Virus record (IMG/VR): IMGVR_UViG_3300021431_004524
Coordinates: 1 to 64,000 of that record
Reading direction: 5' to 3' (one strand)
From: a virus
Taxonomy: Duplodnaviria > Caudoviricetes
Length of the DNA: 64,000 nucleotides
Positions 1,036-52,520 of the stretch are shown here, piece by piece. Numbering within the stretch: the first letter of the stretch is position 1; each line of letters starts with the position of its first letter. The notes beneath the pieces were generated by a model that saw only the letters and a program-made list of their open reading frames with translations, was not told the origin of the DNA and did no database searches. Position numbers and translations under genes: made by a program.

Positions 1036-3054
1036 ATGACAGAGGATAAATTTGATTTTTATGTTTATAAAGTAAAACAAAAGCATGGTGATGTATTTGA
1101 CTTTACCAAGGCTAATCCAAACACAGTTAAAGATAAAATGTGTGTTACATGCAAAAAGCACAATATAGATTTTGAAACTACATTTGATAGTTTAATTCAT
1201 AACAACGGAAATTGTCCGGTTTGTAGTGGAAAATACAGAGGCACGGAAGATTTTATAATTAAAATTAAAGAAATACATGGTGACAAGTATGATTTGTCAA
1301 AAGTGAAATACACAAATGCAAGAAGCAAAGTCACTGTTGTATGCCACGAAAATGATGAATTCGGTGATGAACATGGTGAATTTGAAATACGTGCTTGCAA
1401 CTTATTATATGGCATTGGCTGTCCTAAATGTGGCGGACATTATACGTATACACTTGATGAATGGAAACGTAAGGCAAATAAGGTACATAATGGTAAGTAC
1501 ATATATGATAAAGTGACCTCTACGAAAATAAAGGATAAAATAGAAATAATTTGTCCTATTCATGGTTCGTTTTTTCAAACAGCCGGTTCACATTTACAAG
1601 GGTGTGGCTGTCCTGAGTGTAATGGTGGAACAATAGGTAACAAAGAAGAATTTGTGGAAAAGGCTAATGAAGTTCATCACCATTATTATGATTACAAGAA
1701 TTTCATATATGTTAACCGTCGTACAAAGGGTGCTGTAACATGCCCTATACATGGTGATTTCTTGATTGAACCTGATAAGATTCTTCACGGTGTTGGTTGC
1801 CCTAAATGTAAGAGTTCTAAATTAGAAAACATACTTATTGCACGTTTCAATAAGGAGAATATTAATTATGAATATCAATCAAGTGTGTTAAAACTTGGCA
1901 GACAAACCGTTGATTTCTATCTAAAGGGTAAAAGCATAATAATTGAATGTCAAGGTGAGCAACATTATACTCCGGTCAGATTTACAAAGAAGATGACAGA
2001 TGATGATGCTAAGAATTTGTTTGAGGAACGTAAAAGACTTGATGCTGAAAAGTATGATAAAGCCAAGAAATTAGGCATTGAAATTATATATTTTGTAATT
2101 CCGTCGTATTTTATACAAAATAATGTATCAATAGATTTACCATTTTACAAAGATAAAAAAGTATTTACACAAGTAAATGAACTTGTTGAATATATTAATT
2201 CAATTGAAAACTACGAAGTTTGCGACAATTTCAAAAAGTTTGTAATTGACATTAAAAATCGTGTTACAAAAGACATCGTGCAATTAAAAAACAATATGTT
2301 TAAAAGTAAAGATTTTATAATACACTTTGTGCCTATTGAGCATAATGACCGTGATTCATTAAACAGTATATCAAGGATGTACCGTAAAAAAGGGATAAAT
2401 GTAATTCATGTGTTTGAAGATGAATATATTAACTGTAGAGAAATTGTCATATCAAAATTAATACATATATTAAAGACAAATACATCTTATAAAAAGGTTT
2501 TTGCAAGGAAGTGTATAATAAAAGAAATTGAATCCGTTGAAGCATTTGAGTTCCTTACTAAAAACCACATACAAGGTCCGGCCAAAGCAACTGTTCATTT
2601 AGGTGCTTATTATAATGAAACACTCGTTGGTGTAATGTCATTTTTATGCGGAAAAAATAATGCGTGGGAATTAGTCAGATTTGCAAGTGACAATAATTAT
2701 ATATGTTGTGGTATAGGTGGTAAGTTGTTCAATTATTTTGTTAACCATTATTCATATTCAGAAATAAAGTCGTTTGCAGATAAACGATGGACTTATAACA
2801 GTCTTGACAATATATACACTAAACTCGGTTTTGAACTTGACAGCACTTTAATGCCGGAGTATCGCTATTATAAGATTGGATGTGAAGATAAGACACGGCA
2901 TCATAAGTTTGGCTTCCGAAAACAGAAATTAAATAAGAAATATGGCTTGGATTTGAAGATGACTGAACTTGAAATGACTAAAAAACTTGGCTATGACCGT
3001 ATTTGGGATTGTGGTTTAATCAAGTATATTTATAGGAATCCGAACTATTTATAA
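1036..3054 (+). CDS. free-standing homing-endonuclease-like protein (Zn-ribbon repeats + Vsr/DUF559-like nuclease + C-terminal GNAT/Mom-like domain), copy 1
   Basis: repeated CxxHGxF...GCPxC modules; VDFYL...IIIECQGEQHY nuclease motif; C-terminal FARKC...NHIQG...ELVRFAS...SFADKRW...RIWDCG; paralogous to 35220..37103 and 50847..52520. Confidence 0.8.
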   Translation: MTEDKFDFYVYKVKQKHGDVFDFTKANPNTVKDKMCVTCKKHNIDFETTFDSLIHNNGNCPVCSGKYRGTEDFIIKIKEIHGDKYDLSKVKYTNARSKVTVVCHENDEFGDEHGEFEIRACNLLYGIGCPKCGGHYTYTLDEWKRKANKVHNGKYIYDKVTSTKIKDKIEIICPIHGSFFQTAGSHLQGCGCPECNGGTIGNKEEFVEKANEVHHHYYDYKNFIYVNRRTKGAVTCPIHGDFLIEPDKILHGVGCPKCKSSKLENILIARFNKENINYEYQSSVLKLGRQTVDFYLKGKSIIIECQGEQHYTPVRFTKKMTDDDAKNLFEERKRLDAEKYDKAKKLGIEIIYFVIPSYFIQNNVSIDLPFYKDKKVFTQVNELVEYINSIENYEVCDNFKKFVIDIKNRVTKDIVQLKNNMFKSKDFIIHFVPIEHNDRDSLNSISRMYRKKGINVIHVFEDEYINCREIVISKLIHILKTNTSYKKVFARKCIIKEIESVEAFEFLTKNHIQGPAKATVHLGAYYNETLVGVMSFLCGKNNAWELVRFASDNNYICCGIGGKLFNYFVNHYSYSEIKSFADKRWTYNSLDNIYTKLGFELDSTLMPEYRYYKIGCEDKTRHHKFGFRKQKLNKKYGLDLKMTELEMTKKLGYDRIWDCGLIKYIYRNPNYL

Positions 3055-3075
3055 TAAATACATAATTTAAAAACG

Positions 3076-3792
3076 ATGGCTAAAATTTCAGCAGACGATA
3101 TATTCAATGAAGTAAAAAGGGAAATATTCAATCTTAGGAATAAGGGTGAATTGAAAGTACCTATTGTTGCAGACAATTATACCGTTCCTACAGAGGACGA
3201 TATGTTAAAGGCATATTGGCAGGAGGAAAACAATATAACGGTAGCATATAGAGGTCAGAAAAGGTTAATTCCTTGTCCTATTACGGCTAAGAATGATGAA
3301 TACATTGCAAGGTGTATTATGCAGGGATTTGCCCAAATTTATCTTGGCCGTAACGAAAGCAAGAATATCAGCCGTGAGGATGCAATAAATGTAATGGAAA
3401 ATACAATTACAAGACTTGTGAATGAGGGCTTGATGGAAGTGGATGACAGTGCTGTTGGAGAGGGTGAAGATGAAGGAGAAGTTCACCTCATAACAGATAA
3501 CAACAGAATTATACTTAATGTATTACATGAATTGTGTGGAAATTATCCACATTATGTTACATGTGATATTGACAAATACGATGCTGTCGTTGATTTCAGT
3601 GATTTATACATTATTGTAAGTATGAATGACCAGGGTTATATCTATGTAAGCAAGGTTGAGGGAAGCGTACTTGACAATAAACAGTTTGCTGCTGAGTTAT
3701 GGAAAGAGGTTGGTGAATGTGTGAATAAGATAAACAATTTCAATCATAAATTAACAGATTTGAATATTAGCGGCAGAAGCAGTCGTTTTTAA
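3076..3792 (+). CDS. hypothetical protein
   Basis: 238-aa ORF, TATTTAT 23 nt upstream, terminator downstream. Confidence 0.75.
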   Translation: MAKISADDIFNEVKREIFNLRNKGELKVPIVADNYTVPTEDDMLKAYWQEENNITVAYRGQKRLIPCPITAKNDEYIARCIMQGFAQIYLGRNESKNISREDAINVMENTITRLVNEGLMEVDDSAVGEGEDEGEVHLITDNNRIILNVLHELCGNYPHYVTCDIDKYDAVVDFSDLYIIVSMNDQGYIYVSKVEGSVLDNKQFAAELWKEVGECVNKINNFNHKLTDLNISGRSSRF

Positions 3793-3801
3793 TAACAAAT
3801 A

Positions 3802-3835
3802 AGGACTACTCTTAATTGGGTAGTCCTCTTTTTTT
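3802..3835. terminator. terminator between convergent genes
   Basis: aggactactc-ttaatt-gggtagtcct followed by T-run. Confidence 0.7.
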
Positions 3836-4231
3836 GTATCTTAGCATATCATCCGAATCTACGTATAATCCGTCATAAAATTCCCAATGGTATTTTGTTG
3901 TTTCATGTATTCCGTTTATTACTATTTTATCCCAAATGATTTTCTTTTCAAACCCATTACGCCAACCAAGTTTTACATATTCCGAATATACTTTTTCAGC
4001 AGGATGATTAATGCGTTTTAAAAGCCATCTTTTTAAATATTTCTTTATTTTCTTCTGACTTAGATAGTCGTAGTCAGTTTCATCATATGGGTCATCGTAG
4101 GAAGTTTTACTGAATGGTACGAATTGTGAATTTTCCCATTTTTTCTTAACAAAATACCGGTCAAACTTATCGTGGCAGTTAACCACACAGTATTTGATTT
4201 TGTGTTTTAATTTATAATCTTTTTTTCTCAT
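3812..4231 (-). CDS. hypothetical basic protein
   Basis: 139-aa ORF with LKRWLLKRIN...EKVYSE...GLYVD pattern; preceded by leader ORF and hairpin. Confidence 0.65.
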   Translation of the reverse strand: MRKKDYKLKHKIKYCVVNCHDKFDRYFVKKKWENSQFVPFSKTSYDDPYDETDYDYLSQKKIKKYLKRWLLKRINHPAEKVYSEYVKLGWRNGFEKKIIWDKIVINGIHETTKYHWEFYDGLYVDSDDMLRYKKRGLPN

Positions 4232-4232
4232 T

Positions 4233-4283
4233 GTAGGTAAACTTATATATTACCTACCAGTGTTGTCTCTTGAATTGTTTCAT
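4233..4283 (-). promoter_or_regulatory. putative leader peptide MKQFKRQHW (4283..4254) whose stop lies in an 8-bp hairpin abutting the next ATG
   Basis: minus strand ATG AAA CAA TTC AAG AGA CAA CAC TGG TAG; stem gtaggtaa/ttacctac 4233-4257; ATG at 4231. Confidence 0.45.
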
Positions 4284-4286
4284 ACG

Positions 4287-5723
4287 CTAATTAAAATGTT
4301 CCTTAACATCATTTATTATATCAAATTCAAGCATATCCCTATGATATGTTTCCTCATAATCATACTTGGCTTTAATATCAATATAGTATCTCGATGGTAT
4401 TAAGTCATTAGTATTGATGAAGAAATAATTTGAGTTGTATGCTCTTTCGACTTTCGTGTATGAAATAACGTCTATTTCCCTTTCACCTTGCATTGTATAT
4501 AATCTATATTCAAGGTTATCGACGGCATAAATCTGATTTGTTGTGTAAGGTATTTTGCAATCAATTGATACTTTCCTTATATCTCCACGTCTGATTCTTT
4601 CAAGGTTATTGATACCATATAAGTATGGTTGGAATTTTACCTTTTCTGTTTCTTCTGAAGGAAGACCGAATGAGAAATATCCGGACGGTGATTTTGTCAC
4701 GAAACTCAATTCAACGTCAGGAATTTCATGTCCTTTGTATTTGATATTCTTCCATACATCATAGAGCATTGTATCCGGTTCATATTCTTCGGATGACAAT
4801 TTAATATCAATATAGTAAACACCTTTTGTCGCTTGTTTTGCGACGATTTCAGCCCCATTTACGTCGCAGATGGGTAATTCATCCAAATTAACGGTATTAC
4901 CGCCCACAGAGGCATAAAAATAGAGTTTATTGTCTTTATCAAGATAGAAGTCTGTGCGGTCATCGTCTATTGTCTCATCATATGTGGTTTCGATGTACGG
5001 TTCATAAAATGAATTTGTGTGTTGTGTAAAGAATCCGACATATTGTGACATATCAGTTTTTGTCTGTTCAAATGCGGGTGAGAATGCGATACCAATTCCA
5101 TAGTTGCACAATTCACCTGTAATGAATTTATTAAACGTGCCTGTTATGTCGAACACGATAGGTTCATTACCTACGTCAAAATGTTGATAACCAATAATGA
5201 CATTTGAAAGATTACCCTTCAATGAAGTGAATAAGTCAACTTCGTTTGATAGACGTTCTGTGCTATATATGCCTTCACTATCCCATTTACAATAATCCCT
5301 GAACTGATACCAACTGCAACCGTCTACTGATACAGAACGGTGGTCACTATCATATAAGTCTTGTGCATAGTCGAAACCTCTCCCGCTATCCCAATCGTTA
5401 GGTATAAGGAAGAAAATCAAGTCAAATGATACTGCACGTTTCTTATGATATTGATATTCGCTGTCTAATGTCGGACAGTTAATATTCTTGTCTCTTACAG
5501 AAGAGGCGTTGGTCATGTGCAATACATGTTTAAGTTTGGAAATATCAGGATATATTTTATCTTCAACCATTTGTTTTACTTTGTTATGGTCAAAGTAAAT
5601 CAATCCACGTGTAATCATCTTTCCGTAATTAAGTTCCATTACCGGATTGAGGCTTGTATTACACGGATTATCCTTTATAATGGTATTACTTTTACTGATA
5701 AAAGTCTTCGTATTTATTGCCAT
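4287..5723 (-). CDS. hypothetical protein, probable virion/baseplate component
   Basis: 478-aa beta-rich ORF, TATTTAT 21 nt upstream, next to gp5-like gene. Confidence 0.7.
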   Translation of the reverse strand: MAINTKTFISKSNTIIKDNPCNTSLNPVMELNYGKMITRGLIYFDHNKVKQMVEDKIYPDISKLKHVLHMTNASSVRDKNINCPTLDSEYQYHKKRAVSFDLIFFLIPNDWDSGRGFDYAQDLYDSDHRSVSVDGCSWYQFRDYCKWDSEGIYSTERLSNEVDLFTSLKGNLSNVIIGYQHFDVGNEPIVFDITGTFNKFITGELCNYGIGIAFSPAFEQTKTDMSQYVGFFTQHTNSFYEPYIETTYDETIDDDRTDFYLDKDNKLYFYASVGGNTVNLDELPICDVNGAEIVAKQATKGVYYIDIKLSSEEYEPDTMLYDVWKNIKYKGHEIPDVELSFVTKSPSGYFSFGLPSEETEKVKFQPYLYGINNLERIRRGDIRKVSIDCKIPYTTNQIYAVDNLEYRLYTMQGEREIDVISYTKVERAYNSNYFFINTNDLIPSRYYIDIKAKYDYEETYHRDMLEFDIINDVKEHFN

Positions 5724-5754
5724 TTAATTTATTGCTATATGTTTATAAATAGAC

Positions 5755-5782
5755 AAAAAATCCGATTAAAAATATAATCGGA
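5755..5782 (-). terminator. intrinsic terminator
   Basis: tccgatta-aaaata-taatcgga with A-run on plus strand (U-run on minus). Confidence 0.65.
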
Positions 5783-5783
5783 C

Positions 5784-6668
5784 TTAGTTTATTCTTATTG
5801 AATTTGAAAGCATTTCATCAAGATGTGACTTAGTGGTGAGTTTTTCCAGGTCCGGTTCTGTCAGACAAGGCTTATCCATTGGGAATGGGTGTGTGTGATT
5901 TAAGAATATCCTTATGAATTCCTTTATAAACGCTATTAATTCATCACCGTAAGGCAATTGGTGTGCATTCTGAAATACTTTTACCATTTCTTCCTCTGTG
6001 ATTAACTTTTCCGGGTCTGTCAAATTGAAATATGACCTTGAATCGTGTGACAAAAGATTAATTCTGTCCGCCACGATGTTTATAAGGCTTGAAAAATCAT
6101 TATTCTTATGGTCTTTCATATTCTTATATTTCATTTGGATGTAACCAAGGTCAACTTTATTGAATTTAAGGCAATCATTCTTGTGTGCAAGAGAGTTTTT
6201 CTTGAAACCACAACGTAGTCTTAATTCAGATGGTTTAAGTATAAGGTCAGAATTTCCCCTACCTTGAAAAGCAATGTCTTCCCTATCCGGCAATGTGCCG
6301 TTATTATCGGGGTCAAGGCTTGGTGCCGGAAGTGGTTTTGCAATCTGATTACCCATAAGAAGACTTTGTGCTGAATATGCATAAGCATCAAAATCCATTT
6401 TCTGAGGTTGTGAAATTACCGGTCCAATAAAGAATCTGTCACCTTTACCGTCACCCATGCTTTGGAGAAATACCAAGACCATTTCATTTTGTTTTGGATT
6501 AATGTGCGCAAATTTAGGTAATAAAGGGAAGACATAAGGTAACTCACTAATAGGTGCTTCACTGTCATCTACATATGGTATTCTTACCTTAATTCTAAGT
6601 CCTTCATTATCATCGAATACAGATAATACACGGCACAGATAAATTAGATTGTTATTAGTAATTTCCAT
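5784..6668 (-). CDS. baseplate hub/spike protein with gp5/VgrG-like N-terminal OB fold
   Basis: V..V.DD.EGLRIKVRIP...FPLLP...PKQNEMVLVF...RFFIGP; QGRGNSDLIL; C-terminal NHTHP. Confidence 0.7.
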   Translation of the reverse strand: MEITNNNLIYLCRVLSVFDDNEGLRIKVRIPYVDDSEAPISELPYVFPLLPKFAHINPKQNEMVLVFLQSMGDGKGDRFFIGPVISQPQKMDFDAYAYSAQSLLMGNQIAKPLPAPSLDPDNNGTLPDREDIAFQGRGNSDLILKPSELRLRCGFKKNSLAHKNDCLKFNKVDLGYIQMKYKNMKDHKNNDFSSLINIVADRINLLSHDSRSYFNLTDPEKLITEEEMVKVFQNAHQLPYGDELIAFIKEFIRIFLNHTHPFPMDKPCLTEPDLEKLTTKSHLDEMLSNSIRIN

Positions 6669-6850
6669 TAGTTATTTCCTTCCCTTTTATTTAACAAATC
6701 ATCTATCTTGTCATATTCCTCTTTAGCGGAAAGCATTAAAGCATATGCCTTTGCTATTACTGATTTCTGGTTTTCGAACTCATTAAGAAGTGTTCTTTTC
6801 CTCTCTTTAAGTTCATCATTACTCATCATTTCTATTTTTCTTGTTGCCAT
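6668..6850 (-). CDS. small coiled-coil hypothetical protein
   Basis: 60 aa, translationally coupled to neighbours. Confidence 0.65.
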   Translation of the reverse strand: MATRKIEMMSNDELKERKRTLLNEFENQKSVIAKAYALMLSAKEEYDKIDDLLNKREGNN

Positions 6851-6854
6851 ATTC

Positions 6855-7250
6855 CTATTCTATAATTCCTAATGTTCTTGTTATCATTGGATTCGTTGAA
6901 GTAACGACCACAGGACCGCCGGCATTAGAACCGGTTCCTATTGACATTATTATACCCGGTTCAATGACACTTGTAACCCTTGCATTGTCTTTAAATTCTT
7001 TGACAATTTCCTCTGATATTATTCTTACAAACCCATTAATTTTATTTGGCGAACCGTCGGCATTGACACCGGTTTCAATTCCTGCTTCTGGTAGTCTTCT
7101 TATTATGGCACTTGTTAAAGCAATAGCCGAAAGTCCTGGCCTTCTATATAATTCACATATAAGCAGTAATGGCGGTATCATCTTCAATGCCGGACGAATA
7201 CCACTAAATGCTTTTTCTATTCCTTGTGCAATACTTGTAATCCAACTCAT
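6855..7250 (-). CDS. hypothetical protein, possible baseplate spike-associated
   Basis: 131 aa, C-terminal GTGSNAGGPVVVT beta-strand pattern; operon context. Confidence 0.65.
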   Translation of the reverse strand: MSWITSIAQGIEKAFSGIRPALKMIPPLLLICELYRRPGLSAIALTSAIIRRLPEAGIETGVNADGSPNKINGFVRIISEEIVKEFKDNARVTSVIEPGIIMSIGTGSNAGGPVVVTSTNPMITRTLGIIE

Positions 7251-7265
7251 TCTTCTTTTTATTTT

Positions 7266-9281
7266 TTAACATTCATTATCAATTGGTTCTCCGACTTCTT
7301 CAAGAATATCAGCATAGTTCACATTATCGGTATTAAAGTCAAGGTCGCCTCTATTACTTCTGAAGCAGTCGATAAGTCTTCTGATTAGACGCATATAATA
7401 CTGCGCTTGTTCAACGGTAAGTTTTATTGCGACTTCCTTAGCCAAATCAGCAAGTATTTTCATCAGTTCATCCACAAGATATTGAATTAATGCGTCACGG
7501 ACGGCACGAATCATTTCAACAATCATTTGTCGGTATTTCTCAATAAAGTCACTTAAAGAGAAACTTGTACTTTGTCCTAAGATTTGGAGGTTTATCGCAA
7601 ATACCAAATACACTTTTGGTGAAAGTATTGACATCACTATCACGTAAGCGAGGTTATTCATAATATTTTCTATGAAGTTGATTTGCGCACCAAAATTAAG
7701 TTTATCCTTTTCTTCATAGTTTACATCAGAAATCATTCCGCTTATTTCAGTTAAAGCACCTTCAATTACAGTTTGAACGGTTTCCTTAGATGAGCCGGCA
7801 TTTATTGTATTAAGACTATTAAGAATTGATTCAGCATCTATTCTGACACCTGTTGGGTTATCAGTATCCATTGAATACAGACCTTCTCTTGTAAGTTCTG
7901 CTTTCTGCAACATCTTGTCATAGTCAGCATTAGTAAAAGTGAAGAAACAGTCACTTACGACACTATCATCACTTTCAATGACAGACTGTACCATTTTCTG
8001 TGTTTCGTATTTAATCAGAAGTTGCTCATATGACAAATTCAAATCAATAGATATACAACCGGTCAATGCATCGATTAATTGTGCTGCAAGAGTCTTTGAA
8101 TCGAATAATTTCAAAGACATAACGTAATCAGTATTGAATTCTATAAGAGTGTGATGGTAATAGTAATTTTGTTCAATTTTACGATAATTTGATGGATTAT
8201 CAAGGCTTGCAAGTTTACCTTTCAATTGACTTATCAGTGATAGTTTTTCACTAACTAAACTTGTAATTTCAGTTTGTTTACCTTCAATCTGAGTAGTCAA
8301 ATCTCCTTGTTCTTGAGTGAGTGAATCATATTCACTTAAATAGTACTCTTTGTCAACTATTTGTTCGGCGTATTGTCTTTGAAGTTCTTCTAAATCAATT
8401 GCTATACTTTCAAGTTCTGTTTGTAATTCTTCAATTTCTGCTTTTTTTTCTACAATCTCCTTATCTTTATTCGCAATTTTGGCTTCAAGTTTGTCTATAT
8501 CTGTCGTATCTTGTACGTTACCAAGAAAGACTTGCAGACAATGGTTATGTGGTGTCTGTAAATATGGTTCTTCACTTCCACGTCCAGTTCCATCAGATTT
8601 TCTTAAACTACTTGGTCTTTCACAGTATTGAATTGTAATGATACCATGCTTTTTTTTACATTTTTCTGGTCCCCGTGATGGTGGCTTTGAATAGGGGTCT
8701 TCAGGGTCAGGAATTTTTTGTACTATTTTACTGTTTCCCTCTTCATCCTCATAGGCTATTGAATTGACACCATACCATACTTGTCTTCTTAATGATTTAT
8801 TTTTCGTATGCCATAAGAATGCATTAAAGTCACCGGCCTTTACCAATTCATCAGTATATGTAAAACCATCACAGCCGAAATAGTAATATTGTCCTAATTT
8901 TTCAAGTGGACAATAACTAAGCATATTGATTAAATCAAGTGTCCTTAAATCAAAAACAATACCGTTTTTGAGAAGTTCTTCTGTGATAAACGGATTTAAT
9001 GAACACGTCAAAAGATTTTTAATGTTTGACAATAAAACACCCTTAACTGATATTTCAAGTGCAGGAAGAGCAGTTGCAAGAAAGGTGGATATAATTTTTA
9101 AGAAGATATTATATCCGGTTGTGCTTTTAAACAAATCCATCAAGAATGGGAATGGGTTTGTTGACCTATTAAAAGACAGGTTCGTATTTGTTTCATCAAA
9201 CTCAGGAAACCTATCTAATATTGTAAGCGCAGCATTAACTATCGCAAGTGCTTCATCCTTTGTCTTTTTGATGTCAGCCAT
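7266..9281 (-). CDS. hypothetical protein with central coiled coil
   Basis: 671-aa ORF, coupled to 9281..9691. Confidence 0.8.
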   Translation of the reverse strand: MADIKKTKDEALAIVNAALTILDRFPEFDETNTNLSFNRSTNPFPFLMDLFKSTTGYNIFLKIISTFLATALPALEISVKGVLLSNIKNLLTCSLNPFITEELLKNGIVFDLRTLDLINMLSYCPLEKLGQYYYFGCDGFTYTDELVKAGDFNAFLWHTKNKSLRRQVWYGVNSIAYEDEEGNSKIVQKIPDPEDPYSKPPSRGPEKCKKKHGIITIQYCERPSSLRKSDGTGRGSEEPYLQTPHNHCLQVFLGNVQDTTDIDKLEAKIANKDKEIVEKKAEIEELQTELESIAIDLEELQRQYAEQIVDKEYYLSEYDSLTQEQGDLTTQIEGKQTEITSLVSEKLSLISQLKGKLASLDNPSNYRKIEQNYYYHHTLIEFNTDYVMSLKLFDSKTLAAQLIDALTGCISIDLNLSYEQLLIKYETQKMVQSVIESDDSVVSDCFFTFTNADYDKMLQKAELTREGLYSMDTDNPTGVRIDAESILNSLNTINAGSSKETVQTVIEGALTEISGMISDVNYEEKDKLNFGAQINFIENIMNNLAYVIVMSILSPKVYLVFAINLQILGQSTSFSLSDFIEKYRQMIVEMIRAVRDALIQYLVDELMKILADLAKEVAIKLTVEQAQYYMRLIRRLIDCFRSNRGDLDFNTDNVNYADILEEVGEPIDNEC

Positions 9282-9691: not shown

Positions 9692-9715
9692 TTTACTAAT
9701 ACCTATATATTATAA

Positions 9716-10507: not shown

Positions 10508-10530
10508 TAAACCAAATAAAACATAAAAAA

Positions 10531-11358: not shown

Positions 11359-11361
11359 TGT

Positions 11362-35219: not shown

Positions 35220-37103
35220 TTAATCTTTCTTAAACCACTTATAGACAGCAGTTCCACAATCATAAATTCTATACCATTTTTGTTGTTTACAAAATTCACT
35301 TTCGCTCATATCTTCAGGACACCCATATTTTTTTACAAGGACACTTTTTCTATAATTGAATCTGTTTTTTCTTACATCACCAATTACGTAATAATAGTTT
35401 GGTTTAGAAAAATGACTAAATGTAAATCCAAGATTCTCATATAAGTTTCCCTTTGACCATCTTCTGTCTGCGTATGATACCACATTACTAGGATGATATT
35501 TTTCTATAAAATACTTAAATAATTTTGATGCCCCACCTATGACTTGTGTATTGATTTTATTACAAAATCTTAATAATTCATATTGCATCTTACCGTCACC
35601 AATAAAATGCCTTGATTTACCGAATGTCATTAATGATACTAATTCATCGCTATAATATAAGCCCAATTTAATTTGGCTTGGACACCATCCTTGTATGTGA
35701 TTTTTATTAAGAAAATCTGTACATTCTTTTGTCCCTATTTCTTTAACAATACACTTTCTTGCATATATTTTATTATCAGTTTTATTTAAAAGATTAGAAA
35801 TCATAGATTTCCATATCTCTTTTTTATAAATCCATTCGTCTTCAAATATATGAATTAATCTAATACCATGTTTTTCACATTCTAATGTTTTCCACAAATG
35901 ATAATCATTTGGTCTGTTATTTTCATTATGCCAGAATACACCGTCGAATTCAAAAGCCATTTTCATAGATGGAATGTAAATGTCGAGTTCTTTTCCATCA
36001 AGAATAGTTCTATCATTATTGTAAATGTCTGTATATCCAAGTGTTTTAATAAATTCAGCGATTTCCTTTTCTTTTGAAGATGAGTTACAATTATGATATG
36101 GACAGCCATGACCTTGTAAGAATGAATTAGCCTCAATAGAAAATGTACGTCCGCATTCATTACATTTTACTTCAACTTTCTTATCTGATGCTATATATTT
36201 ACTCAATACTGTGTATTTATTATCTCCATGTATTAGTTCAGCATCTTTTATAAACTGTTCTGTCGTTTTTGTTTTATTTTTAGCAATAAGGATTTTATTA
36301 CATTCCGGACATGGGTCTCCTTTTAAGGAATTATTAAAAAATGTGTTTGCTTTTCTTGTAAATTCATGACCGCATGTTCGACATGTACACTTCATTGGTT
36401 TCATTGTGCCGTCATATGATGTATAATCCACCATTATTGACGGATATAGTTCATTCATTCGTTTTTTAACTTCTTCTAAAGGTAAACGTTGTTTTGCACC
36501 GCTTTTTCTACCGGCGCATTTTTTACAGGAATAAACACCAATCAAAATGTTAGAAATCTTTTTAAAATCTTCTTTACCACAGGTTTTACATTTAACTGAA
36601 ACACGGTCTTTTTTTATATTTTTTTCTCCTTCAAATTGTTCAATATCAAAACCTTCAATTTTTTCTATCAATTCATTATATGAAATGGTTTCTTTTGGCA
36701 ATTCTTTACACCAACACCCGCCTGTTTTAGAACTTACAAAATCACAAGCGATTTTTACAAAAGTTTTACCACATAAATTACATTTAACCGTTATTTTACT
36801 ATGACTGTTTTCATATTCTTTATCTATATTAGGAAAAGAATACCGGTCACCAAATCGTTCCTTAGCCGTTTGAACAAAATTTTTCCATTTATTTTTAGAA
36901 TATGTTGCGGCATATTTTTTACCACACTCAGGACAACCTTGACCTTGTAAATGATTATGCGGTGTCTGCTGAAATCGATAACCACATTTTTTATGTGTCA
37001 TCCACATTTTAATTTTAGTTTTAATATAACTGTCTGGTTCATAGATATATTCATCCCCATGAACTTCACGTGCTTTATTTTCAAACCATTCGTAATTGTG
37101 CAT
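35220..37103 (-). CDS. free-standing homing-endonuclease-like protein (Zn-ribbon + Vsr-like + GNAT/Mom-like), copy 2, inside fractured polB
   Basis: CxxC repeats; ELDIYIP...AFEFDGVFWH...IHIFEDEW; YARKC...NHIQG...ELLRFC...SYADRRWS...RIYDCG. Confidence 0.85.
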   Translation of the reverse strand: MHNYEWFENKAREVHGDEYIYEPDSYIKTKIKMWMTHKKCGYRFQQTPHNHLQGQGCPECGKKYAATYSKNKWKNFVQTAKERFGDRYSFPNIDKEYENSHSKITVKCNLCGKTFVKIACDFVSSKTGGCWCKELPKETISYNELIEKIEGFDIEQFEGEKNIKKDRVSVKCKTCGKEDFKKISNILIGVYSCKKCAGRKSGAKQRLPLEEVKKRMNELYPSIMVDYTSYDGTMKPMKCTCRTCGHEFTRKANTFFNNSLKGDPCPECNKILIAKNKTKTTEQFIKDAELIHGDNKYTVLSKYIASDKKVEVKCNECGRTFSIEANSFLQGHGCPYHNCNSSSKEKEIAEFIKTLGYTDIYNNDRTILDGKELDIYIPSMKMAFEFDGVFWHNENNRPNDYHLWKTLECEKHGIRLIHIFEDEWIYKKEIWKSMISNLLNKTDNKIYARKCIVKEIGTKECTDFLNKNHIQGWCPSQIKLGLYYSDELVSLMTFGKSRHFIGDGKMQYELLRFCNKINTQVIGGASKLFKYFIEKYHPSNVVSYADRRWSKGNLYENLGFTFSHFSKPNYYYVIGDVRKNRFNYRKSVLVKKYGCPEDMSESEFCKQQKWYRIYDCGTAVYKWFKKD

Positions 37104-41505: not shown

Positions 41506-41523
41506 TAGGAAATACAATTACTT

Positions 41524-42228: not shown

Positions 42229-42233
42229 ACTAA

Positions 42234-42662: not shown

Positions 42663-42663
42663 A

Positions 42664-43170: not shown

Positions 43171-43171
43171 A

Positions 43172-45181: not shown

Positions 45182-45204
45182 TATCAGTTTATACCTCTTA
45201 TATG

Positions 45205-45235
45205 CAAATATACTACATTTGTTTTAAACCACAAA
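45205..45235 (-). promoter_or_regulatory. Bacteroidota-type promoter for helicase-exonuclease operon
   Basis: TTTG-N19-TATATTTG(CA); back-to-back with TATTTAT at 45237-45243 on plus strand. Confidence 0.7.
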
Positions 45236-45262
45236 CTATTTATAGATATATTTTACTGGAAT

Positions 45263-45787: not shown

Positions 45788-45789
45788 TA

Positions 45790-46926
45790 ATGCGTAAAGG
45801 ACAACCGAAAAAGAATATCGTACCCATAAGATTTAAAGATAAGTCATTTGGTAATGAAAGACGTAGGAATTTTCCAAGGGAGATTCTTTATAAGGAAACT
45901 GAATTGCCAAAACCTTTGAACTATGATGACATAGATTCTTCTTTTGAAGAATTTGTGAAGGAAGAAGTCGCAAAATTCAACAATACCATTTATCCGGTCT
46001 TTACCCTTTACAGCAATCAGAGATTCAGTGAGTATTCTCAGAATTGGGAACATACGGATGAGGATGGTAATCTATTACTCAATTTTGTTACAGTCAACAG
46101 AGATAGTAACCCAAAACCCGGTTCTAACCAAGGTGAACTGTGGAACATACCGGGAGACAGATACTATACAATGCTTATAAAGGATGTGCTTGATGACAAC
46201 GGAACGGAAAGTTATGAGATATATTCGATGAAACAGCCTTATGCAGTCGATTTGAGTTATCGTATAAATTTTATGACTTCAACCTATGAAAACATCAATG
46301 ATTTCAATAACCGTATTAATGAACTGTTTAAGGCAAGACAATGTTATATAAGACCTAATGGTCATTTTATACCTATGATTGTAGAGGAAATAAATGATGA
46401 AACGTCTTATAGTATAGACGAACGTAGATTCTTTCTTCAATCGATAGGAATTAAGGTGATGGCATACATCATCAATAAAGAGGATTTTAAAGTTGAGAAG
46501 AAACCAAAACATATAATGATGTTTATGGAAGGCGATGCAAAAAGACCTACTCCAACAGTCGATATTGATGAATATGAAGGAAATAACCCATTAGAATACC
46601 GTTCAGTTGACCTTACAGTTAATTTCAGTGAATATTATGAAAAGGTTGAATTTGATATTGATAGTGATTTAGTCGTTGAAACGACATCAAAGACAAATGT
46701 CAGAAGTATGAGACTCTTCGTTAATGATACTATGTACTACATTGACAAAGGATTTAAGTTGAAGAACGGTGATAATATTAAGATAAAAATAAATAAATAC
46801 GACATATCTGATAAGGCAACCATTGTTTTCAATGGATATAATCCGAATTATGTCTATAACACTGAAGTTACTCCAGAAAAGGTGAGTGATGAAGTCGTTA
46901 AGCATGAAGAGATAAATATTGATTAA
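45790..46926 (+). CDS. tail completion/terminator-like protein (gp15-like candidate)
   Basis: 378 aa; QPYAVDLSYRI...INDFN; position upstream of sheath. Confidence 0.5.
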   Translation: MRKGQPKKNIVPIRFKDKSFGNERRRNFPREILYKETELPKPLNYDDIDSSFEEFVKEEVAKFNNTIYPVFTLYSNQRFSEYSQNWEHTDEDGNLLLNFVTVNRDSNPKPGSNQGELWNIPGDRYYTMLIKDVLDDNGTESYEIYSMKQPYAVDLSYRINFMTSTYENINDFNNRINELFKARQCYIRPNGHFIPMIVEEINDETSYSIDERRFFLQSIGIKVMAYIINKEDFKVEKKPKHIMMFMEGDAKRPTPTVDIDEYEGNNPLEYRSVDLTVNFSEYYEKVEFDIDSDLVVETTSKTNVRSMRLFVNDTMYYIDKGFKLKNGDNIKIKINKYDISDKATIVFNGYNPNYVYNTEVTPEKVSDEVVKHEEINID

Positions 46927-46966
46927 TATTAATTCGTTGTTCTATCTTTATTTTGAGGTTATGACA

Positions 46967-47053
46967 GTCCCAGGACCTTGTCTACAATATGTCTACTACC
47001 AGAAATTTTTTATTTAATTAAAAATAAAAAATTAGTTTCTGGGACCTAGGTCC
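46967..47053. other. structured intergenic element with nested inverted repeats
   Basis: gtcccag/ctgggac, ccagaaa..tttctgg around an AT stem, palindrome ggacctaggtcc. Confidence 0.5.
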
Positions 47054-47094
47054 AAAAAGATAAGAAAATATATAAAAGAAAAGAAAAAGGTAAA

Positions 47095-47451
47095 ATGAAG
47101 AAGACTTCTCAGATTTACAAGTTCATTGAAGCGAACCGTTCATTGGATAAACTCATGTCTCAGAATTTGGAATATCCTATAAAGACTGCGTACAACATCG
47201 TTAAATCAAAGAAAGAGTTGGATGAAGCAATTGACTATGTTATGGAAAGGTTCGGTATCGTATGTGGCAATAATGTTGATTTTGAAAATATCTCAGATGA
47301 ACAGAACGTTATTTTAAACGGAATATTGTCACAAGAGATAGAGATAGATTTACCGGATATACCAATAAATGATATTGTTTCAAACGATAATGTAACTGTA
47401 TCAACCTCCGACATAGAAAATATAATGTTTCTCTTTGGAAAAAACGACTAA
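47095..47451 (+). CDS. hypothetical protein
   Basis: 118 aa. Confidence 0.65.
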   Translation: MKKTSQIYKFIEANRSLDKLMSQNLEYPIKTAYNIVKSKKELDEAIDYVMERFGIVCGNNVDFENISDEQNVILNGILSQEIEIDLPDIPINDIVSNDNVTVSTSDIENIMFLFGKND

Positions 47452-47528
47452 TAAATATCAGTTACAAGTACTTTTAGGTTTTGAAATGATATTTATTATA
47501 AAATAATTTGTTAAACAAAATAGAATAA

Positions 47529-50500
47529 ATGGCAAATACGAATAATAATAACGCAAGACAGACACACGTAAGTCCGGGTATATACACAAAGGAAACCGAC
47601 CTGACTTACGCATCAAAGTCTCTTGGTATTACTACTTTGGGTCTTGTTGGTGAAACCTTAAAAGGTCCCGCATTTCAGCCAATAACAATCGAAAATTGGA
47701 GACAGTACCAACAGTATTTCGGTGGAACAAGTACTGAGAAATACAGAGGAAGCCAATATCCTAAGTATGAATTACCTTATATTGCACAGTCGTATCTCAA
47801 ACAGTCAAATCAGCTTGAAGTATGCCGTGTTCTTGGTCTTTCTGGTGTTAATGCCGGACCTGCTTGGATTGTAACGGCTAAGAAAGAAAATGGAACATAT
47901 GATGATATGGTCGTGTTCGTACTTCGTTCAAGAGGTGAACACAAAAAGGCTGCTTTCTTACGCCATCCAACTGAGGAAGATAAGAAAAACGGAATTTGTA
48001 GTGATGTTTATGAGAATGACGGAATTGTGTATTATACCTCAGCAGTTTCACTTGATGTAAGCAAAACACTTGAATTCGGTAACGAATGTAGTCCAAGTCC
48101 AACGACCGAATCCGGCGACTTTAAAGTGAATGTTAATAACTACGGACGTTTTACGATTGTTGTAACCACTAATACAGGTGCTATAAAAAAATACTCCGTA
48201 TCACTTAATCCGGGTGAAAAGAACTATATAATTAATGTTCTTGGCACGAATCCTGAAATCGGTGAATCTGAGGTTTATGTTGAAGAACTTTATGATGTTG
48301 CATTGGAGCAATTAATTGAAAGAGGTGAAATTGATAGTATTAATCACATACCTACTGAATATAAACTCACATACATAGTACCTAAGTATGATGAAGTGGA
48401 TGATATTCTTACTTACGAGGAAGATTTGCTTACAAGAAAAGACGTTGGCAAACGTTTCCTTTACAGTTCATCACTTTCAAAAAATGGTAATGATGCTGCA
48501 ATTAATGTGCATGTATCTACTGATGATGGTAAGACTTGGACTGAAATGGCCGGTAGTGTAGGACATATCTATACTGTTATTCCATTCACAACTTCAGAGG
48601 GTACACGTAAATACTACTATGGTGAATACAATAGTACAGGTGATGGGTCGAATACGGAAATTCTTACTACTGATAGAACAGTTGACCCGACAAGTCATAT
48701 TTTTGATAATGCCGTTAAGGTTAGGTCTTATGAGTCGTTCTTTGTCCTTGAAGATGGTGATGTTAAACCGGTTACTCTTGATATGAACAACTATAAGGAA
48801 CAGTTCAGATATGCTTCGACACCTTGGATATTGTCAGAAATGAAGGGTGATGCTGAAAACATTGAGATTAACAGACTTTTCAGATTCCATACTATTTCTG
48901 ACGGTAATACTGCAAATACGGAAGTTAAGGTTTCTATTGAGAATATTGACCCTGAATATGGTACGTTCGATGTAATTGTACGTGATTTCTATGATACTGA
49001 TAACGCACCTGTTGTATATGAAAGATATAAGGGTGTTAATCTTATCCCTGGTGACAAGAACTATATCTCATTAAGAATCGGTTCATTCGATGAGGAATAT
49101 GAAAACATGTCTAATTACATTACTGTTGAGGTAAATGAAAATGACAAGACAAAGCAGTCAATTCCTGCCGGTTTCATGGGCTATCCGGTAAGAAATTATG
49201 AGAACGGTATTACAATACAGAATGTTTCAACAAAACCAAAAAAACCATTCTTCCAATATAATACTAATGTAGATGCCGACATAAGAATCAATAAACAGTA
49301 TTTTGGTATTTCTAATATTACCGGTATTGATGAGGATATCTTGAAGTATAAGGGCGTTGAGGCATATGATGAGGAACCAGATGGACTTACACCATGTTTC
49401 CACCTTGATTCACGTATTCTTGAAACTGCTTATAAGACGAAATACGACATTATACAAAATGTAACGATTGATGGCGTTGGCGGTTATGAATGGGTTACAG
49501 TAGGTGCTGAAAATCAGACTATGTTCGGTATCGAACCAAGAATCGGTGACTTAGAAACCATGATGGGCACAATCTATGAGGATAAGAGATACCGTAAGTT
49601 CACTCTTGCTTTCTGCGGTGGTTTCGACGGATGGGATTATTACCGTACCTCAAGAAGTAATTCAGATGACTTCAAATATACAAAATACAAGGGAAAGATT
49701 AATAGACAGAGTGGAATTGGTACAATGCTTTCTGTAATTAAAGACCCTGAGAATTATGGCTTCGGTGGAGGCGATAAGGTTTTGAACTCAGACTTCTATG
49801 CCTATCTTTCCGCTTACAGGCAGTTTGCTAATCCTAAGACAATTGACATTAACGTGTTTGCAACACCCGGTATCGATTATGTTAATCAGAATGCACTTGT
49901 CGGTGAAGTCATAACAATGATTGAAGAGGAACGTGCAGACTCAGTATATGTCGTTACGACACCTGATAAGCCTTATGGTGCAAGTGATGCTGAAGGTGAC
50001 ATGTTTACACCGTCTGATGCTGTTGATAATCTTGATGATTCTGAAATCGATAGTAATTACACTTGTTCATATTATCCTTGGTGTAAATACTTTGATGAAG
50101 AAAATAACAAATATATTTATCTGCCACCAACACGTGACGTAGTACGTAACTTTGCTTATACTGACAATACTAAGTATCCTTGGTTTGCAGCAGCAGGTTG
50201 GTATCGTGGTGAGATTGAGGACAAGGGTGTTAAGCCTAAGAAGTCTTTGAAACTCGGTGAACAGGACGTGCTCTATGCCGGACGTTTGAACTTCATTAAT
50301 ACTTTTGCAAAAGAAGGTATGAAGATTTGGGGTGATAAGAACATGCAGGTTCGTGAGAGTCAGATGAATAGGATTTCTAAGAGAAGATTGCTTATCCGTA
50401 TTAGAAAACTTTGCTCTATTGCTTGTATCGGTCTTATTTTCGACCCGAACGACAACACAACGAAGCAGTCATTTGAAAGTGCAATCACGCCAATCCTTGA

Positions 50501-50678
50501 CAATATCATGGCAAATCGTGGTATTACCGATTGGAGACTTGAAATCGATGACAGTCAAGAGGCACGTGACAGACTTGAGTTACCTGCTAAGATTTATATC
50601 AAACCACAGCCTAACCTTGAATATATAGATATTAATTTCGTTATTACACCACAAGGTACAAACTGGGACGATATTTAA
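47529..50678 (+). CDS. contractile tail sheath protein (gp18-like)
   Basis: SPGIYTKETDL, GETLKGPAFQP, INVFATPG, PWFAAAG..RG, IWGDK, RISKRRLL, IKPQPNLEYIDINF. Confidence 0.95.
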   Translation: MANTNNNNARQTHVSPGIYTKETDLTYASKSLGITTLGLVGETLKGPAFQPITIENWRQYQQYFGGTSTEKYRGSQYPKYELPYIAQSYLKQSNQLEVCRVLGLSGVNAGPAWIVTAKKENGTYDDMVVFVLRSRGEHKKAAFLRHPTEEDKKNGICSDVYENDGIVYYTSAVSLDVSKTLEFGNECSPSPTTESGDFKVNVNNYGRFTIVVTTNTGAIKKYSVSLNPGEKNYIINVLGTNPEIGESEVYVEELYDVALEQLIERGEIDSINHIPTEYKLTYIVPKYDEVDDILTYEEDLLTRKDVGKRFLYSSSLSKNGNDAAINVHVSTDDGKTWTEMAGSVGHIYTVIPFTTSEGTRKYYYGEYNSTGDGSNTEILTTDRTVDPTSHIFDNAVKVRSYESFFVLEDGDVKPVTLDMNNYKEQFRYASTPWILSEMKGDAENIEINRLFRFHTISDGNTANTEVKVSIENIDPEYGTFDVIVRDFYDTDNAPVVYERYKGVNLIPGDKNYISLRIGSFDEEYENMSNYITVEVNENDKTKQSIPAGFMGYPVRNYENGITIQNVSTKPKKPFFQYNTNVDADIRINKQYFGISNITGIDEDILKYKGVEAYDEEPDGLTPCFHLDSRILETAYKTKYDIIQNVTIDGVGGYEWVTVGAENQTMFGIEPRIGDLETMMGTIYEDKRYRKFTLAFCGGFDGWDYYRTSRSNSDDFKYTKYKGKINRQSGIGTMLSVIKDPENYGFGGGDKVLNSDFYAYLSAYRQFANPKTIDINVFATPGIDYVNQNALVGEVITMIEEERADSVYVVTTPDKPYGASDAEGDMFTPSDAVDNLDDSEIDSNYTCSYYPWCKYFDEENNKYIYLPPTRDVVRNFAYTDNTKYPWFAAAGWYRGEIEDKGVKPKKSLKLGEQDVLYAGRLNFINTFAKEGMKIWGDKNMQVRESQMNRISKRRLLIRIRKLCSIACIGLIFDPNDNTTKQSFESAITPILDNIMANRGITDWRLEIDDSQEARDRLELPAKIYIKPQPNLEYIDINFVITPQGTNWDDI

Positions 50679-50698
50679 TATTAGTCATAGAAATAAAA

Positions 50699-50735
50699 TT
50701 AAAGAGGGATTTCTTAAAGAAGTTCCTCTTTTTTA
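50699..50735 (+). terminator. intrinsic terminator after sheath
   Basis: aaagagggatttct-taa-agaagttcctctttttt. Confidence 0.75.
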
Positions 50736-50754
50736 GTTATTTTAACAGAAAAAA

Positions 50755-50786
50755 TTTGGTTATTTGGAAATAAAGTAGTAAATTTG
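50755..50786 (+). promoter_or_regulatory. Bacteroidota-type promoter of endonuclease copy 3
   Basis: TTTG-N20-TAAATTTG. Confidence 0.65.
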
Positions 50787-50846
50787 AATGTAATTTTTAA
50801 AAATCACGATTCGATTGCTATTATATCGCTGAATATTATTGCAAAT

Positions 50847-52520
50847 ATGAAAAAAATAAGGTCATTTGAGGAAACTGTTAAATTGTTCAGAGAAGTTCAC
50901 GGTTACAAATTTGAATATTATCCAGAGACATATCACGGTAGTGCATATAAGATGAAAATGCATTGTAATATTTGTGGATGTGATTTTGAACAAACCCCTA
51001 ATAAACATTTATTAGGAAGAGGATGTCCTGAATGTGGCGGGACTAAAGTTTGGGACAAAGATAAATTCGTTAAAGAAACTGAGAAAATATTTCCAAAACA
51101 ATTTTCTTTTGATGAAACAAATTATGTTAACCAAAGGACACCTCTTATTGTGACTTGTAAAAAACATGGAAATATTGAAGTTATTCCTAAAACATTTCTG
51201 AAAGGTTGTGGGTGTCCATATTGTAAAGAAGAAAAAAATAAAAAATTTGCTGATAGTTTTGAAGAGCGTGCAAGAAAAATACATCCTGTGGAGGAATGTT
51301 TGGATTACGGTGAAAGTTGTTATGTAAATATACATACACCATTGAAGATAATATGTCATAAGAAAGATGAATATGGTGTGGAACATGGTGAGTTTTGGCA
51401 AACGCCAGCACATCACCTAAGTGGTCAAGGATGTCCTAAATGTAATGGCAATTTCAAAATGACTGGTAAGGAATTTGAAATAAAATCTAAGAAAATTCAT
51501 CAAGATAAATTTACATATTTTACTGAAAAATATAATGGTTATAATGAAAATGTGGAGATTAAATGCAATACATGTGGTAAAATATTTTTTCAAACTCCAC
51601 ACAATCATTTAAAAGGTGAAGGTTGTCCATATTGTGTTGGTAATATATCTAAACCGGAAACCGATATTGCTGAATTTATTTCACAATATACATATATAGA
51701 TACAAATAATAGAAAAATATTAGACAATTCAAAGGAAATAGATATTTTAATTCCTGACAAGAAAATTGCATTTGAATATGATGGGTTGGTGTGGCATTCA
51801 GAAAAATTCGGAAAAGACCGAAATTACCATCTTAATAAAACCGAAGAATGTAAAAATAAAGGAATAAAATTATATCATATATTTGAAGATGAATGGGTAT
51901 TTAACAGAGAAATTGTAGAGTCAAGAATAAAGAATATACTTGGTGTAACAGAAAATAAAATATATGCAAGAAAATGCAGTATAAAAGAAATAAGTGATAA
52001 TGATGCAGAAATATTTTTGAATAATAATCATATACAAGGGTATTGTAAGTCAAAATATAGATACGGTTTGTTTTATAATAATGAATTAGTGTCTGTTATG
52101 ACATTTGGGCATCTTCGTAAGAATTTAGGCAGTATAGGAAATAACGACGAATATGAACTACTTAGATTCTGCAATAAGCTTGATACTACTGTAACAGGCG
52201 GTGCTTCTAGACTACTTAAGTGTTTTATAAACAAAGTACATCCAAACAGAATTATAAGTTATGCTGATAAAAGATGGAGTAATGGTAATCTTTATGAAAA
52301 GTTAGGATTTAAACATGTAAAGGATAGTCAACCTGGATATTTCTATATTATAGGACAACGCAGAGAAAATAGATTTAAATATAGAAAGGATAAACTTGTT
52401 AAAGAAGGATATGACAAAAATAAAACCGAACATGAGATAATGATTGAACGTGGAATATATAGAATATATGATTGTGGAATGATGGTTTTTGAGATGATAA
52501 TAAATAATCCCGATGAATAA
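50847..52520 (+). CDS. free-standing homing-endonuclease-like protein, copy 3 (between sheath and tube)
   Basis: same architecture: CxxC repeats, EIDILIP...AFEYDGLVWH...HIFEDEW, YARKC...SYADKRWS...RIYDCG; ATG 50847 preferred. Confidence 0.85.
   Translation: MKKIRSFEETVKLFREVHGYKFEYYPETYHGSAYKMKMHCNICGCDFEQTPNKHLLGRGCPECGGTKVWDKDKFVKETEKIFPKQFSFDETNYVNQRTPLIVTCKKHGNIEVIPKTFLKGCGCPYCKEEKNKKFADSFEERARKIHPVEECLDYGESCYVNIHTPLKIICHKKDEYGVEHGEFWQTPAHHLSGQGCPKCNGNFKMTGKEFEIKSKKIHQDKFTYFTEKYNGYNENVEIKCNTCGKIFFQTPHNHLKGEGCPYCVGNISKPETDIAEFISQYTYIDTNNRKILDNSKEIDILIPDKKIAFEYDGLVWHSEKFGKDRNYHLNKTEECKNKGIKLYHIFEDEWVFNREIVESRIKNILGVTENKIYARKCSIKEISDNDAEIFLNNNHIQGYCKSKYRYGLFYNNELVSVMTFGHLRKNLGSIGNNDEYELLRFCNKLDTTVTGGASRLLKCFINKVHPNRIISYADKRWSNGNLYEKLGFKHVKDSQPGYFYIIGQRRENRFKYRKDKLVKEGYDKNKTEHEIMIERGIYRIYDCGMMVFEMIINNPDE

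Follow-up and report, generated by a model that had tools for sequence, protein, structure and literature searches.

The DNA analysed here, referred to as the window, is the first 64 kb of a 235,653-bp IMG/VR virus record (an uncultured phage of 236 kb), and it carries three paralogous genes, copies 1 to 3, which we read as putative homing endonuclease genes (HEGs) that end in a domain resembling the DNA-modifying protein Mom of phage Mu. All three are intact, full-length open reading frames (ORFs) of 672, 627 and 557 amino acids (aa), and they share one build, namely four or five zinc-finger (Zn-finger) repeats, a Vsr-like nuclease and a conserved C-terminal domain of ~190 aa (Table 1). An earlier note on this DNA had described three diverged paralogs beside core genes, and both the ORFs with their coordinates and their neighbours (capsid, B-family DNA polymerase or polB, and sheath/tube) were found as it had said, with copy 2 lying between the halves of a split intein in polB. 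Over their full length the copies are 33-35% identical in pairwise comparison and the last ~190 aa are far more alike, with the motifs ARKC, NHIQG, ELxRF, GG, S[YF]ADxRW, LYxxLGF and RI[WY]DCG common to them; only these three copies of the domain were found in the whole record. Copies 2 and 3 matched PHROG 559 ('HNH endonuclease') and PHROG 3339 ('homing endonuclease') along almost the entire protein (E 1e-110 to 1e-153), with full-length matches to PHROG 559 at E 1e-153 and 1e-141. Close homologues with 73-99% identity were present on other contigs, and the C-terminal domain alone matched 17,501 clusters at 50% identity.

Table 1. Coordinates of the three genes, their neighbours and the promoter-like boxes in the window
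Feature	Coordinates	Strand	Remarks
Capsid gene, gp23-type	ends at 783		upstream neighbour of copy 1
Promoter-like box, TTTG-N20-TATATTTG	913..944	+	precedes copy 1 and follows the terminator hairpin of the capsid gene (821-852); from sequence only
HEG copy 1 (P0001)	1036..3054	+	672 aa; four Zn-finger repeats, Vsr-like nuclease, nuclease-like remnant, Mom-like GNAT
Promoter-like box, TTTG-N17-21-TAnnTTTG	18654-18625	-	before another gene
C-terminal split-intein part and polB C-extein	35161-33557	-	36 aa ending VISN; C-extein starts TDGF
Promoter-like box, TTTG-N17-21-TAnnTTTG	35210-35179	-	before the C-terminal polB piece
HEG copy 2 (P0002)	35220..37103	-	627 aa; five Zn-finger repeats, EDxHD/Vsr-like nuclease aa 344-449, Mom-like GNAT aa ~450-627
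polB N-extein and N-terminal split-intein part	39681-37177	-	648 aa ending ..IVGD; 186 aa, SFTEDTP.., TEDHSLF
Promoter-like box, TTTG-N17-21-TAnnTTTG	45235-45205	-	before another gene
Sheath gene	47529-50678		upstream neighbour of copy 3
Promoter-like box, TTTG-N20-TAAATTTG	50755..50786	+	upstream of copy 3, after a sheath-gene terminator-like hairpin
HEG copy 3 (P0003)	50847..52520	+	557 aa; four Zn-finger repeats, EDxHD/Vsr-like nuclease aa 270-375, Mom-like GNAT aa ~376-557
Tail tube gene, gp19-type	53053-52565	-	convergent with the sheath gene, beyond copy 3

The variable Cys-repeat arrays that the earlier note had seen at the N termini are arrays of four, five and four treble-clef Zn-finger repeats in copies 1, 2 and 3, respectively, each repeat spanning ~65-75 aa with a C-x2-(C/H) knuckle and a C-P-x-C knuckle. 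The Pfam treble-clef Zn-finger model DUF4379 matched the repeats with E values of 1e-9 to 1e-12 in copies 2 and 3, and DUF723 and CapR were the other Pfam models with matches. Presumably such an array would hold the enzyme on DNA, and we infer that it may also set the target specificity; in I-Bth0305I, the prototype of the EDxHD Vsr-like homing endonuclease family and its sole characterised enzyme, specificity comes mostly from the nuclease dimer and not from the N-terminal DNA-binding region (PMC3239194).

A single-sequence phmmer search of the N-terminal 450 aa against PDB sequences returned nothing meaningful. The nuclease profile of copies 2 and 3, built from 39 homologous domains, gave one significant match to PDB sequences, the catalytic domain of I-Bth0305I (3R3P, E 1.2e-4). 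Across these 39 relatives, columns E28, D30, E41, G44, H48 and E78 were invariant and D79 was conserved in >90%, the acidic C-terminal motif of the domain was likewise invariant, and all conserved residues of the EDxHD motif were present in copies 2 and 3. On this sequence evidence, we assign the nuclease of copies 2 and 3 to the EDxHD family of I-Bth0305I and Hef.

Occupancy of the three sites in related phages

The three sites were compared across related phages (the sheath-tube interval in 27 related contigs, polB in 25, and the capsid 3' flank in 60 loci with enough sequence), and each proved variable: vacant in some, held by other lineages in others, or occupied more than once. The sheath-tube interval was empty, with 120-165 bp between the genes in L006, L016 and L020 and ~500 bp in L025 and L026; the remaining contigs held one, two or three HEGs of different lineages there, some without the Mom-like domain, and HEGs were also found beyond the tube gene. 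Downstream of the capsid gene, a HEG bearing the Mom-like domain was present at 12 of the 60 loci and a Mom-less one at 3, while 45 had none. This patchy presence with empty sites, the pattern expected of homing elements, shows that the three genes are mobile, as the earlier note had proposed; the idea that they are fixed core genes was rejected because the sites are empty in relatives.

The tube gene itself was found in two orientations, being convergent with the sheath gene in the window and in about half of the relatives (L001-L027) and co-oriented with it in the rest. Both orientations occurred with and without HEGs between the two genes, and a small tube segment was therefore inverted during divergence, in a region crowded with endonuclease genes.

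The most complete series of site states was seen at polB. On one strand of the window, the N-extein with the N-terminal intein part, a short spacer, HEG copy 2, and the C-terminal intein part with the C-extein follow one another, and the junctions read ..IVGD|SFTEDTP..TEDHSLF.. and ..VISN|TDGF, so that joining the exteins restores polymerase motif C (GD-TDG). In 11 of the 25 relatives (L039-L044, L047-L049, L051 and L053) polB was uninterrupted, and the tblastn alignments of the two exteins abutted, 3 nucleotides (nt) apart. The exteins of L029 are 97-98% identical to those of the window, and there the same GD|TDG junction was occupied by a contiguous intein, in frame and with two LAGLIDADG motifs. 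In L030, equally close to the window, the intein was split and the HEG was a different one of the Hef type (31% and 60% identity in its two parts). Other relatives contained a split intein with two HEGs, L046 had a split intein with only a 40-aa Mom-like remnant between its halves, and L035 also showed a HEG remnant. Because the Pfam intein models were silent on the polB pieces (no match at E <= 0.01), the intein assignment was made from the motifs and the comparison with L029; a megablast search of the polB region against isolate phages likewise found no match. We presume that the contiguous intein of L029 documents the ancestral state. The tail of the window's N-terminal intein part (..KKEFLSKMDLSKVSE..ILYLRSCI) resembles the region of the second LAGLIDADG block of the L029 intein, as if the HEG had invaded the intein's own endonuclease domain.

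This arrangement reproduces the fractured genes described by Dassa et al. in 2009, in which split-intein halves flank a free-standing Vsr-like HEG; the host genes reported then were gp41, IMPDH, DnaE, NrdA, NrdJ, ligase and terminase, whereas here the host is a B-family polymerase interrupted at motif C (PMC2677866).

Outside the window, at ~208323-210282 (locus L134 324-2283, minus strand), the same genome has two overlapping genes. The first encodes a 375-aa Mom-less protein with four Zn-finger repeats of the same type and a Vsr-like nuclease with the motif IECQGRQH, and it shares 14 nt with the start of the second, downstream one, which encodes a 281-aa DNA methyltransferase (SPPY and FDPFMGTGTTG motifs). 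The two could form a pair of nuclease and modifier, in parallel with the fusion of nuclease and Mom, or a HEG may simply have settled next to a gene for a methyltransferase.

That pair bears on a different view of the whole family, in which the proteins are single-chain weapons resembling restriction-modification systems, directed against host or superinfecting-phage DNA, with Mom protecting the phage genome globally. Iyer et al. (2021; Viruses 13:63, section 3.4.7) published this prediction for fusions of Mom with a restriction endonuclease (Mom-REase) in jumbo phages, that is, for the same fusion in the same kind of genome and with the same cut-and-protect proposal, and they read the nuclease as restricting host or superinfecting DNA (PMC7824862). 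The overlap of the Mom-less nuclease gene with the methyltransferase gene fits such a view as well. The placement in the window and its relatives points instead to homing: the junctions with conserved genes are precise, including that within polB motif C, and in near-identical phages the sites are occupied, empty or re-occupied by different lineages. Moreover, three diverged copies with long DNA-binding arrays of their own fit three specific targets better, and Hef of the T-even phage U5 was shown to be a homing endonuclease that cleaves nrdB (PMC2988022). We consider a primarily restrictive function improbable on these grounds, although both readings could hold at once, since HEGs harm competitors through marker exclusion as well.

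Collectively, the domain identities, the conserved catalytic residues, the site-specific patchiness and the split-intein anatomy of copy 2 form the direct basis for reading the three genes as Hef-type free-standing homing endonucleases with a Vsr-like (EDxHD) nuclease and a Mom-family GNAT domain, which is the best explanation of the whole and to which we give a probability of roughly 85%; that the enzymes cleave, home and choose their targets is what we infer from this basis.

The C-terminal domain and the hybrid build of copy 1

The C-terminal domain is a GNAT fold, specifically a Mom-like one. An AlphaFold2 model of the copy 3 domain, built on 40 sequences, reached a pLDDT of 92.3, and in a Foldseek search with this model Mu Mom (crystal structure 8BV8; E 7e-8, TMq 0.65) came out on top, with ordinary GNAT acetyltransferases ranking below it. 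In VIA re-alignment all GNATs were tied at Z 13-14; 8BV8 scored Z 13.9 with the longest alignment, 162 residues as against ~125-146 for the others, spanning residues 9-192 of the model and 35-227 of the chain. Sequence searches of PDB entries were far less informative, as single-sequence phmmer returned nothing meaningful for the domain and the 40-sequence profile gave only a marginal GNAT match (glyphosate acetyltransferase, E 0.055) without reaching 8BV8. PHROG 1384 ('Mom-like DNA modification protein') matched copy 3 (E 1.5e-10), and several close homologues carry a precomputed match to the Pfam Mom model (PF25680). The Mom-like GNAT domain proposed by the earlier note was thereby upheld. 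Of the outcomes that the note had named as refuting its view, neither a C-terminal domain of another fold nor fixation of the genes at these loci in all relatives was found.

The Mu Mom sequence used for comparison was taken from the phage Mu record, and its residues are given in the 231-aa numbering. Alignment by hhalign paired ELxR with MELNR, GGAS with SES, S[YF]ADxR with SFADER and LY with VY, and the paired residues correspond to Mom R101, S114, D139, R141 and Y149, all of which are needed for Mom activity (10.1101/861617; PMC13219725, numbering +10); in Mom, R101, D139 and Y149 line the catalytic cleft, and Y149 and S114 contact the cofactor (10.1101/861617). Copies 2 and 3 keep all five, and copy 1 keeps R, D, R and Y. 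Over 337 instances of the domain, conservation was 100% for R101 (337), 76% for S114, 94% for D139, 78% for R141 and 99.7% for Y149 (336). The model also has three short helices between strands (residues 145-170), in which R145, R149 and K150 are invariant or near-invariant, and a helix-turn-helix-like insertion is required for Mom activity (PMC13219725).

Whether these features mean an active enzyme is a narrower question than the identity of the genes. By analogy with Mu Mom, the domain could be an active, locally tethered DNA-adenine modifier that shields the resident target, and we put this at somewhat under even odds. We favour it because the pocket residues are near-invariant over hundreds of diverged copies and have been kept beside a decayed nuclease. 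Several observations weigh on the other side. The Pfam Mom model scored 18.1, 19.8 and 23.4 bits for copies 1, 2 and 3 (E 5e-5 to 2e-3) and at best 26.0 bits in a six-frame search, all under the curated cut-off of 27.1 bits, and for this reason we call the domain Mom-like rather than Mom: it is a distinct branch and not a Mom orthologue. Copy 1 has Gly at the position of Mom Ser114, and the Mom protein that was crystallised is an inactive mutant, S124A, altered at this same residue (in the other numbering). An equivalent of Arg141 is lacking in ~22% of the family. HEGs with the same repeat array and no Mom-like domain exist (L001 8349-9371, and the 375-aa gene of this genome), and the domain is therefore dispensable for the persistence of such elements. 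A search of the last 783 nt of the capsid gene for substitutions linked to a HEG, as candidates for target immunity (12 loci with a downstream Mom-bearing HEG against 41 without, ~800 tests), gave no clear signal either way: the best site was position 327, a third codon position (9 of 12 against 5 of 41, uncorrected P = 7e-5, borderline after ~800 tests), where the relatedness of the loci and the mixture of HEG lineages act as confounders.

Some of these observations would sit more easily with a domain that modifies nothing and serves the homing endonuclease as a constant structural module, a dimerisation element or base-flipping DNA clamp that places two nuclease domains. Mu Mom is dimeric and binds DNA tightly (10.1101/861617), I-Bth0305I must dimerise to cut both strands (PMC3239194), and within the paralogs it is the Mom-like domain that is best conserved and independent of the target. 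The Ser-to-Gly exchange in copy 1 and most of its subfamily (52 of 61), the losses at R141 and the Mom-less relatives agree with such a role, and the invariant basic residues of the helical insertion, taken to match the one that Mom needs (PMC13219725), would suit a DNA clamp. The pocket is nevertheless more conserved than a scaffold would need, with R101 and Y149 equivalents present in all and all but one of the 337 instances, and the copy 1 subfamily retains R, D, R and Y in 61 of 61 members although the adjacent Hef nuclease has decayed. We therefore regard a purely structural domain as unlikely, while still giving it appreciable weight beside an active modifier.

Copy 1 differs from its paralogs in the nuclease part, so that the Vsr-like nuclease stated for all three genes was borne out as a fold in each but not as one and the same domain. 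Its Zn-finger repeats (aa ~1-258) are followed by a complete Vsr-like nuclease (aa ~255-393), a remnant (aa ~395-481) and the Mom-like GNAT domain (aa ~482-672). The Hef-type nuclease profile aligned only weakly, to P0001 381-491, where S, F, H and F replace E41, G44, W47 and H48 at the Hef catalytic columns. Residues 255-393, by contrast with this decayed stretch, carry D..IECQGEQH..D..K, invariant in 42 relatives, and thereby keep the D, E, G, H, D pattern as D..IECQGEQH..D. A model of residues 255-495 (pLDDT 90.7) showed two subdomains, of which the first aligned with Vsr (1CW0, Z 9.5, 116 residues, root-mean-square deviation 3.5; 1VSR, Z 9.0) and with I-Bth0305I (3R3P, Z 9.0, 96/98 residues), and the second, small one matched generic endonuclease-like folds only (splicing endonuclease, Z 7.2; Hjc, Z 6.5).

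The repeat array and first nuclease of copy 1 are 37% identical to the 375-aa Mom-less nuclease, and the hybrid layout is common to ~60 database proteins. A plausible origin is that a Mom-less Zn-finger nuclease recombined onto a Hef-type gene, after which the old nuclease would have decayed and the Mom-like domain stayed under selection. The hybrid nature of copy 1, with its complete second Vsr-like domain, decayed Hef remnant and Mom-like domain, is an addition of this analysis. Within aa 255-481, the C-terminal FEDE(Y/W) motif of the decayed nuclease is still invariant in 42 relatives; in function, the stretch may be part of the Mom-like module and not of the nuclease.

Degeneration after fixation is common among HEGs, and the decayed nuclease of copy 1 and the gene remnants at the polB site in L046 and L035 could be taken to mean that the genes of the window are decaying passengers which no longer cut or modify. 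Three intact, full-length ORFs, intact catalytic residues in copies 2 and 3 and in the first nuclease of copy 1, and homologues of 73-99% identity on other contigs make this very improbable.

Promoter-like boxes and a proposed model of homing

The pattern TTTG-N17-21-TAnnTTTG, with (G)TAGTAnnTTTG as its usual ending, is one that we take to be the Bacteroidota-type promoter consensus. Matches to it lie directly before copies 1 and 3 and share GTAGTAnnTTTG, and it is these two positions together with the shared stretch that make the boxes suggestive of promoters. A terminator scan confirmed the hairpin at 821-852, between the capsid gene and the box of copy 1. Over the whole window the pattern was not enriched (6 found, 4 expected), and a sigma-70 scan around copy 1 gave nothing above shuffled expectation. 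The type of box suggests a host from the phylum Bacteroidota, and its placement hints at autonomous expression of copies 1 and 3 from promoters of their own. Translation of copy 3 probably begins at the ATG at 50847, since the longer TTG frame from 50784 overlaps the box. The box preceding the C-terminal polB piece may have been brought in by the HEG, in keeping with a proposal that Dassa et al. made for fractured genes (PMC2677866).

Each gene has an apparent promoter of its own and resides beside or inside a highly conserved gene (capsid, polB, sheath/tube). On the homing endonuclease reading, the enzyme would be held on DNA by its Zn-finger array and, during a mixed infection, would cleave the allele of a related phage that lacks the HEG; the gene would then spread when the break is repaired with the HEG-bearing genome as template. 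Such a cycle would account for the patchy filling of the three sites by several lineages. At polB, copy 2 would have invaded the endonuclease region of the intein and split it, with trans-splicing rebuilding the polymerase.

The insertion of a free-standing HEG does not destroy its target, and the resident copy of that target would need a shield. A Mom-like domain using aminoacyl-tRNA, by analogy with Mu Mom, might provide it. In its fullest form, and tentatively, since we hold it with less assurance than modifying activity as such, the proposal is that the Zn-finger-tethered Mom-like enzyme would place a bulky, tRNA-dependent adenine adduct on its own target, making one polypeptide a site-specific restriction-modification-plus-homing unit. 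The suggestion of the earlier note that the GNAT-like domain modifies DNA for self-protection thus stands as an argument from analogy with Mom.

Relation to known systems and implications

A tblastn search found the same C-terminal domain in 414 isolate-phage records, most of which bear the label hef, Hef-like or homing endonuclease and one the label 'putative nuclease/acetyltransferase', in line with the Hef-like annotation that had been noted for similar proteins. Hef-like homing endonucleases are annotated in Campylobacter, Acinetobacter, Klebsiella (RaK2), Pseudomonas jumbo, Dickeya LIMEstone and other phages, where, like the copies of the window, they are free-standing and lie beside conserved genes; F-LimVIII of LIMEstone adjoins the tail tube gene, as does copy 3 (PMC3296691). 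The C-terminal domains of the window are 30-47% identical to those of isolate phages, with one uncultured phage record reaching 60%, and the window proteins differ from the isolate-phage Hef-like proteins in their long Zn-finger repeat arrays.

I-Bth0305I shares with them the order of an N-terminal DNA-binding region followed by the nuclease, but it is intron-encoded, has NUMOD/helix-turn-helix motifs in place of Zn-finger repeats and lacks a Mom-like domain (PMC3239194). Mu Mom is only 16-18% identical to the domains of the window and stands alone, not fused to a nuclease and DNA-binding array, yet the two share the ELxR, S[YF]ADxR and Y motifs. The domains of the window also have a helical insertion rich in invariant basic residues, which may match that of Mom. 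Mu Mom is a Gly-tRNA-dependent, adenine-N6-modifying GNAT that transfers glycine from Gly-tRNA onto adenine N6, and the profile of the 2026 Mom study was built from 500 sequences with only Mom domains (PMC13219725).

The novelty that the earlier note had implied does not hold, because Hef-type enzymes were placed in the Vsr-like/EDxHD family by Taylor et al. in 2011 (PMC3239194) and the Mom-nuclease fusion with the cut-and-protect idea has been in print, as a prediction, since 2021 (PMC7824862). Our literature search found no paper testing the Mom-like domain of any Hef-type protein.

The genes themselves are ordinary, being further members of a very large family, and the interest of the window rests on three points: its Mom-like domain, copy 1 as a hybrid, and the series of site states at polB, which is unusually complete. 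Recent work sharpens an old question, namely how free-standing homing endonucleases, which keep their own target in the genome, escape self-cleavage, and for what reason a Mom-type enzyme, with strong purifying selection on its catalytic pocket, is found in thousands of them. With the reaction and structure of Mom known since 2023-2026, the hypothesis is now directly testable, and the three loci, with empty, singly and multiply occupied relatives, offer natural substrate pairs, the best of them at polB, where three states occur on exteins that are 97-98% identical. If the tethered-modifier proposal is true, these would be the first homing endonucleases shown to have modification-based self-immunity, and the copy 1 subfamily, in which the nuclease was swapped and the Mom pocket kept, would show that the modifier is the indispensable half.

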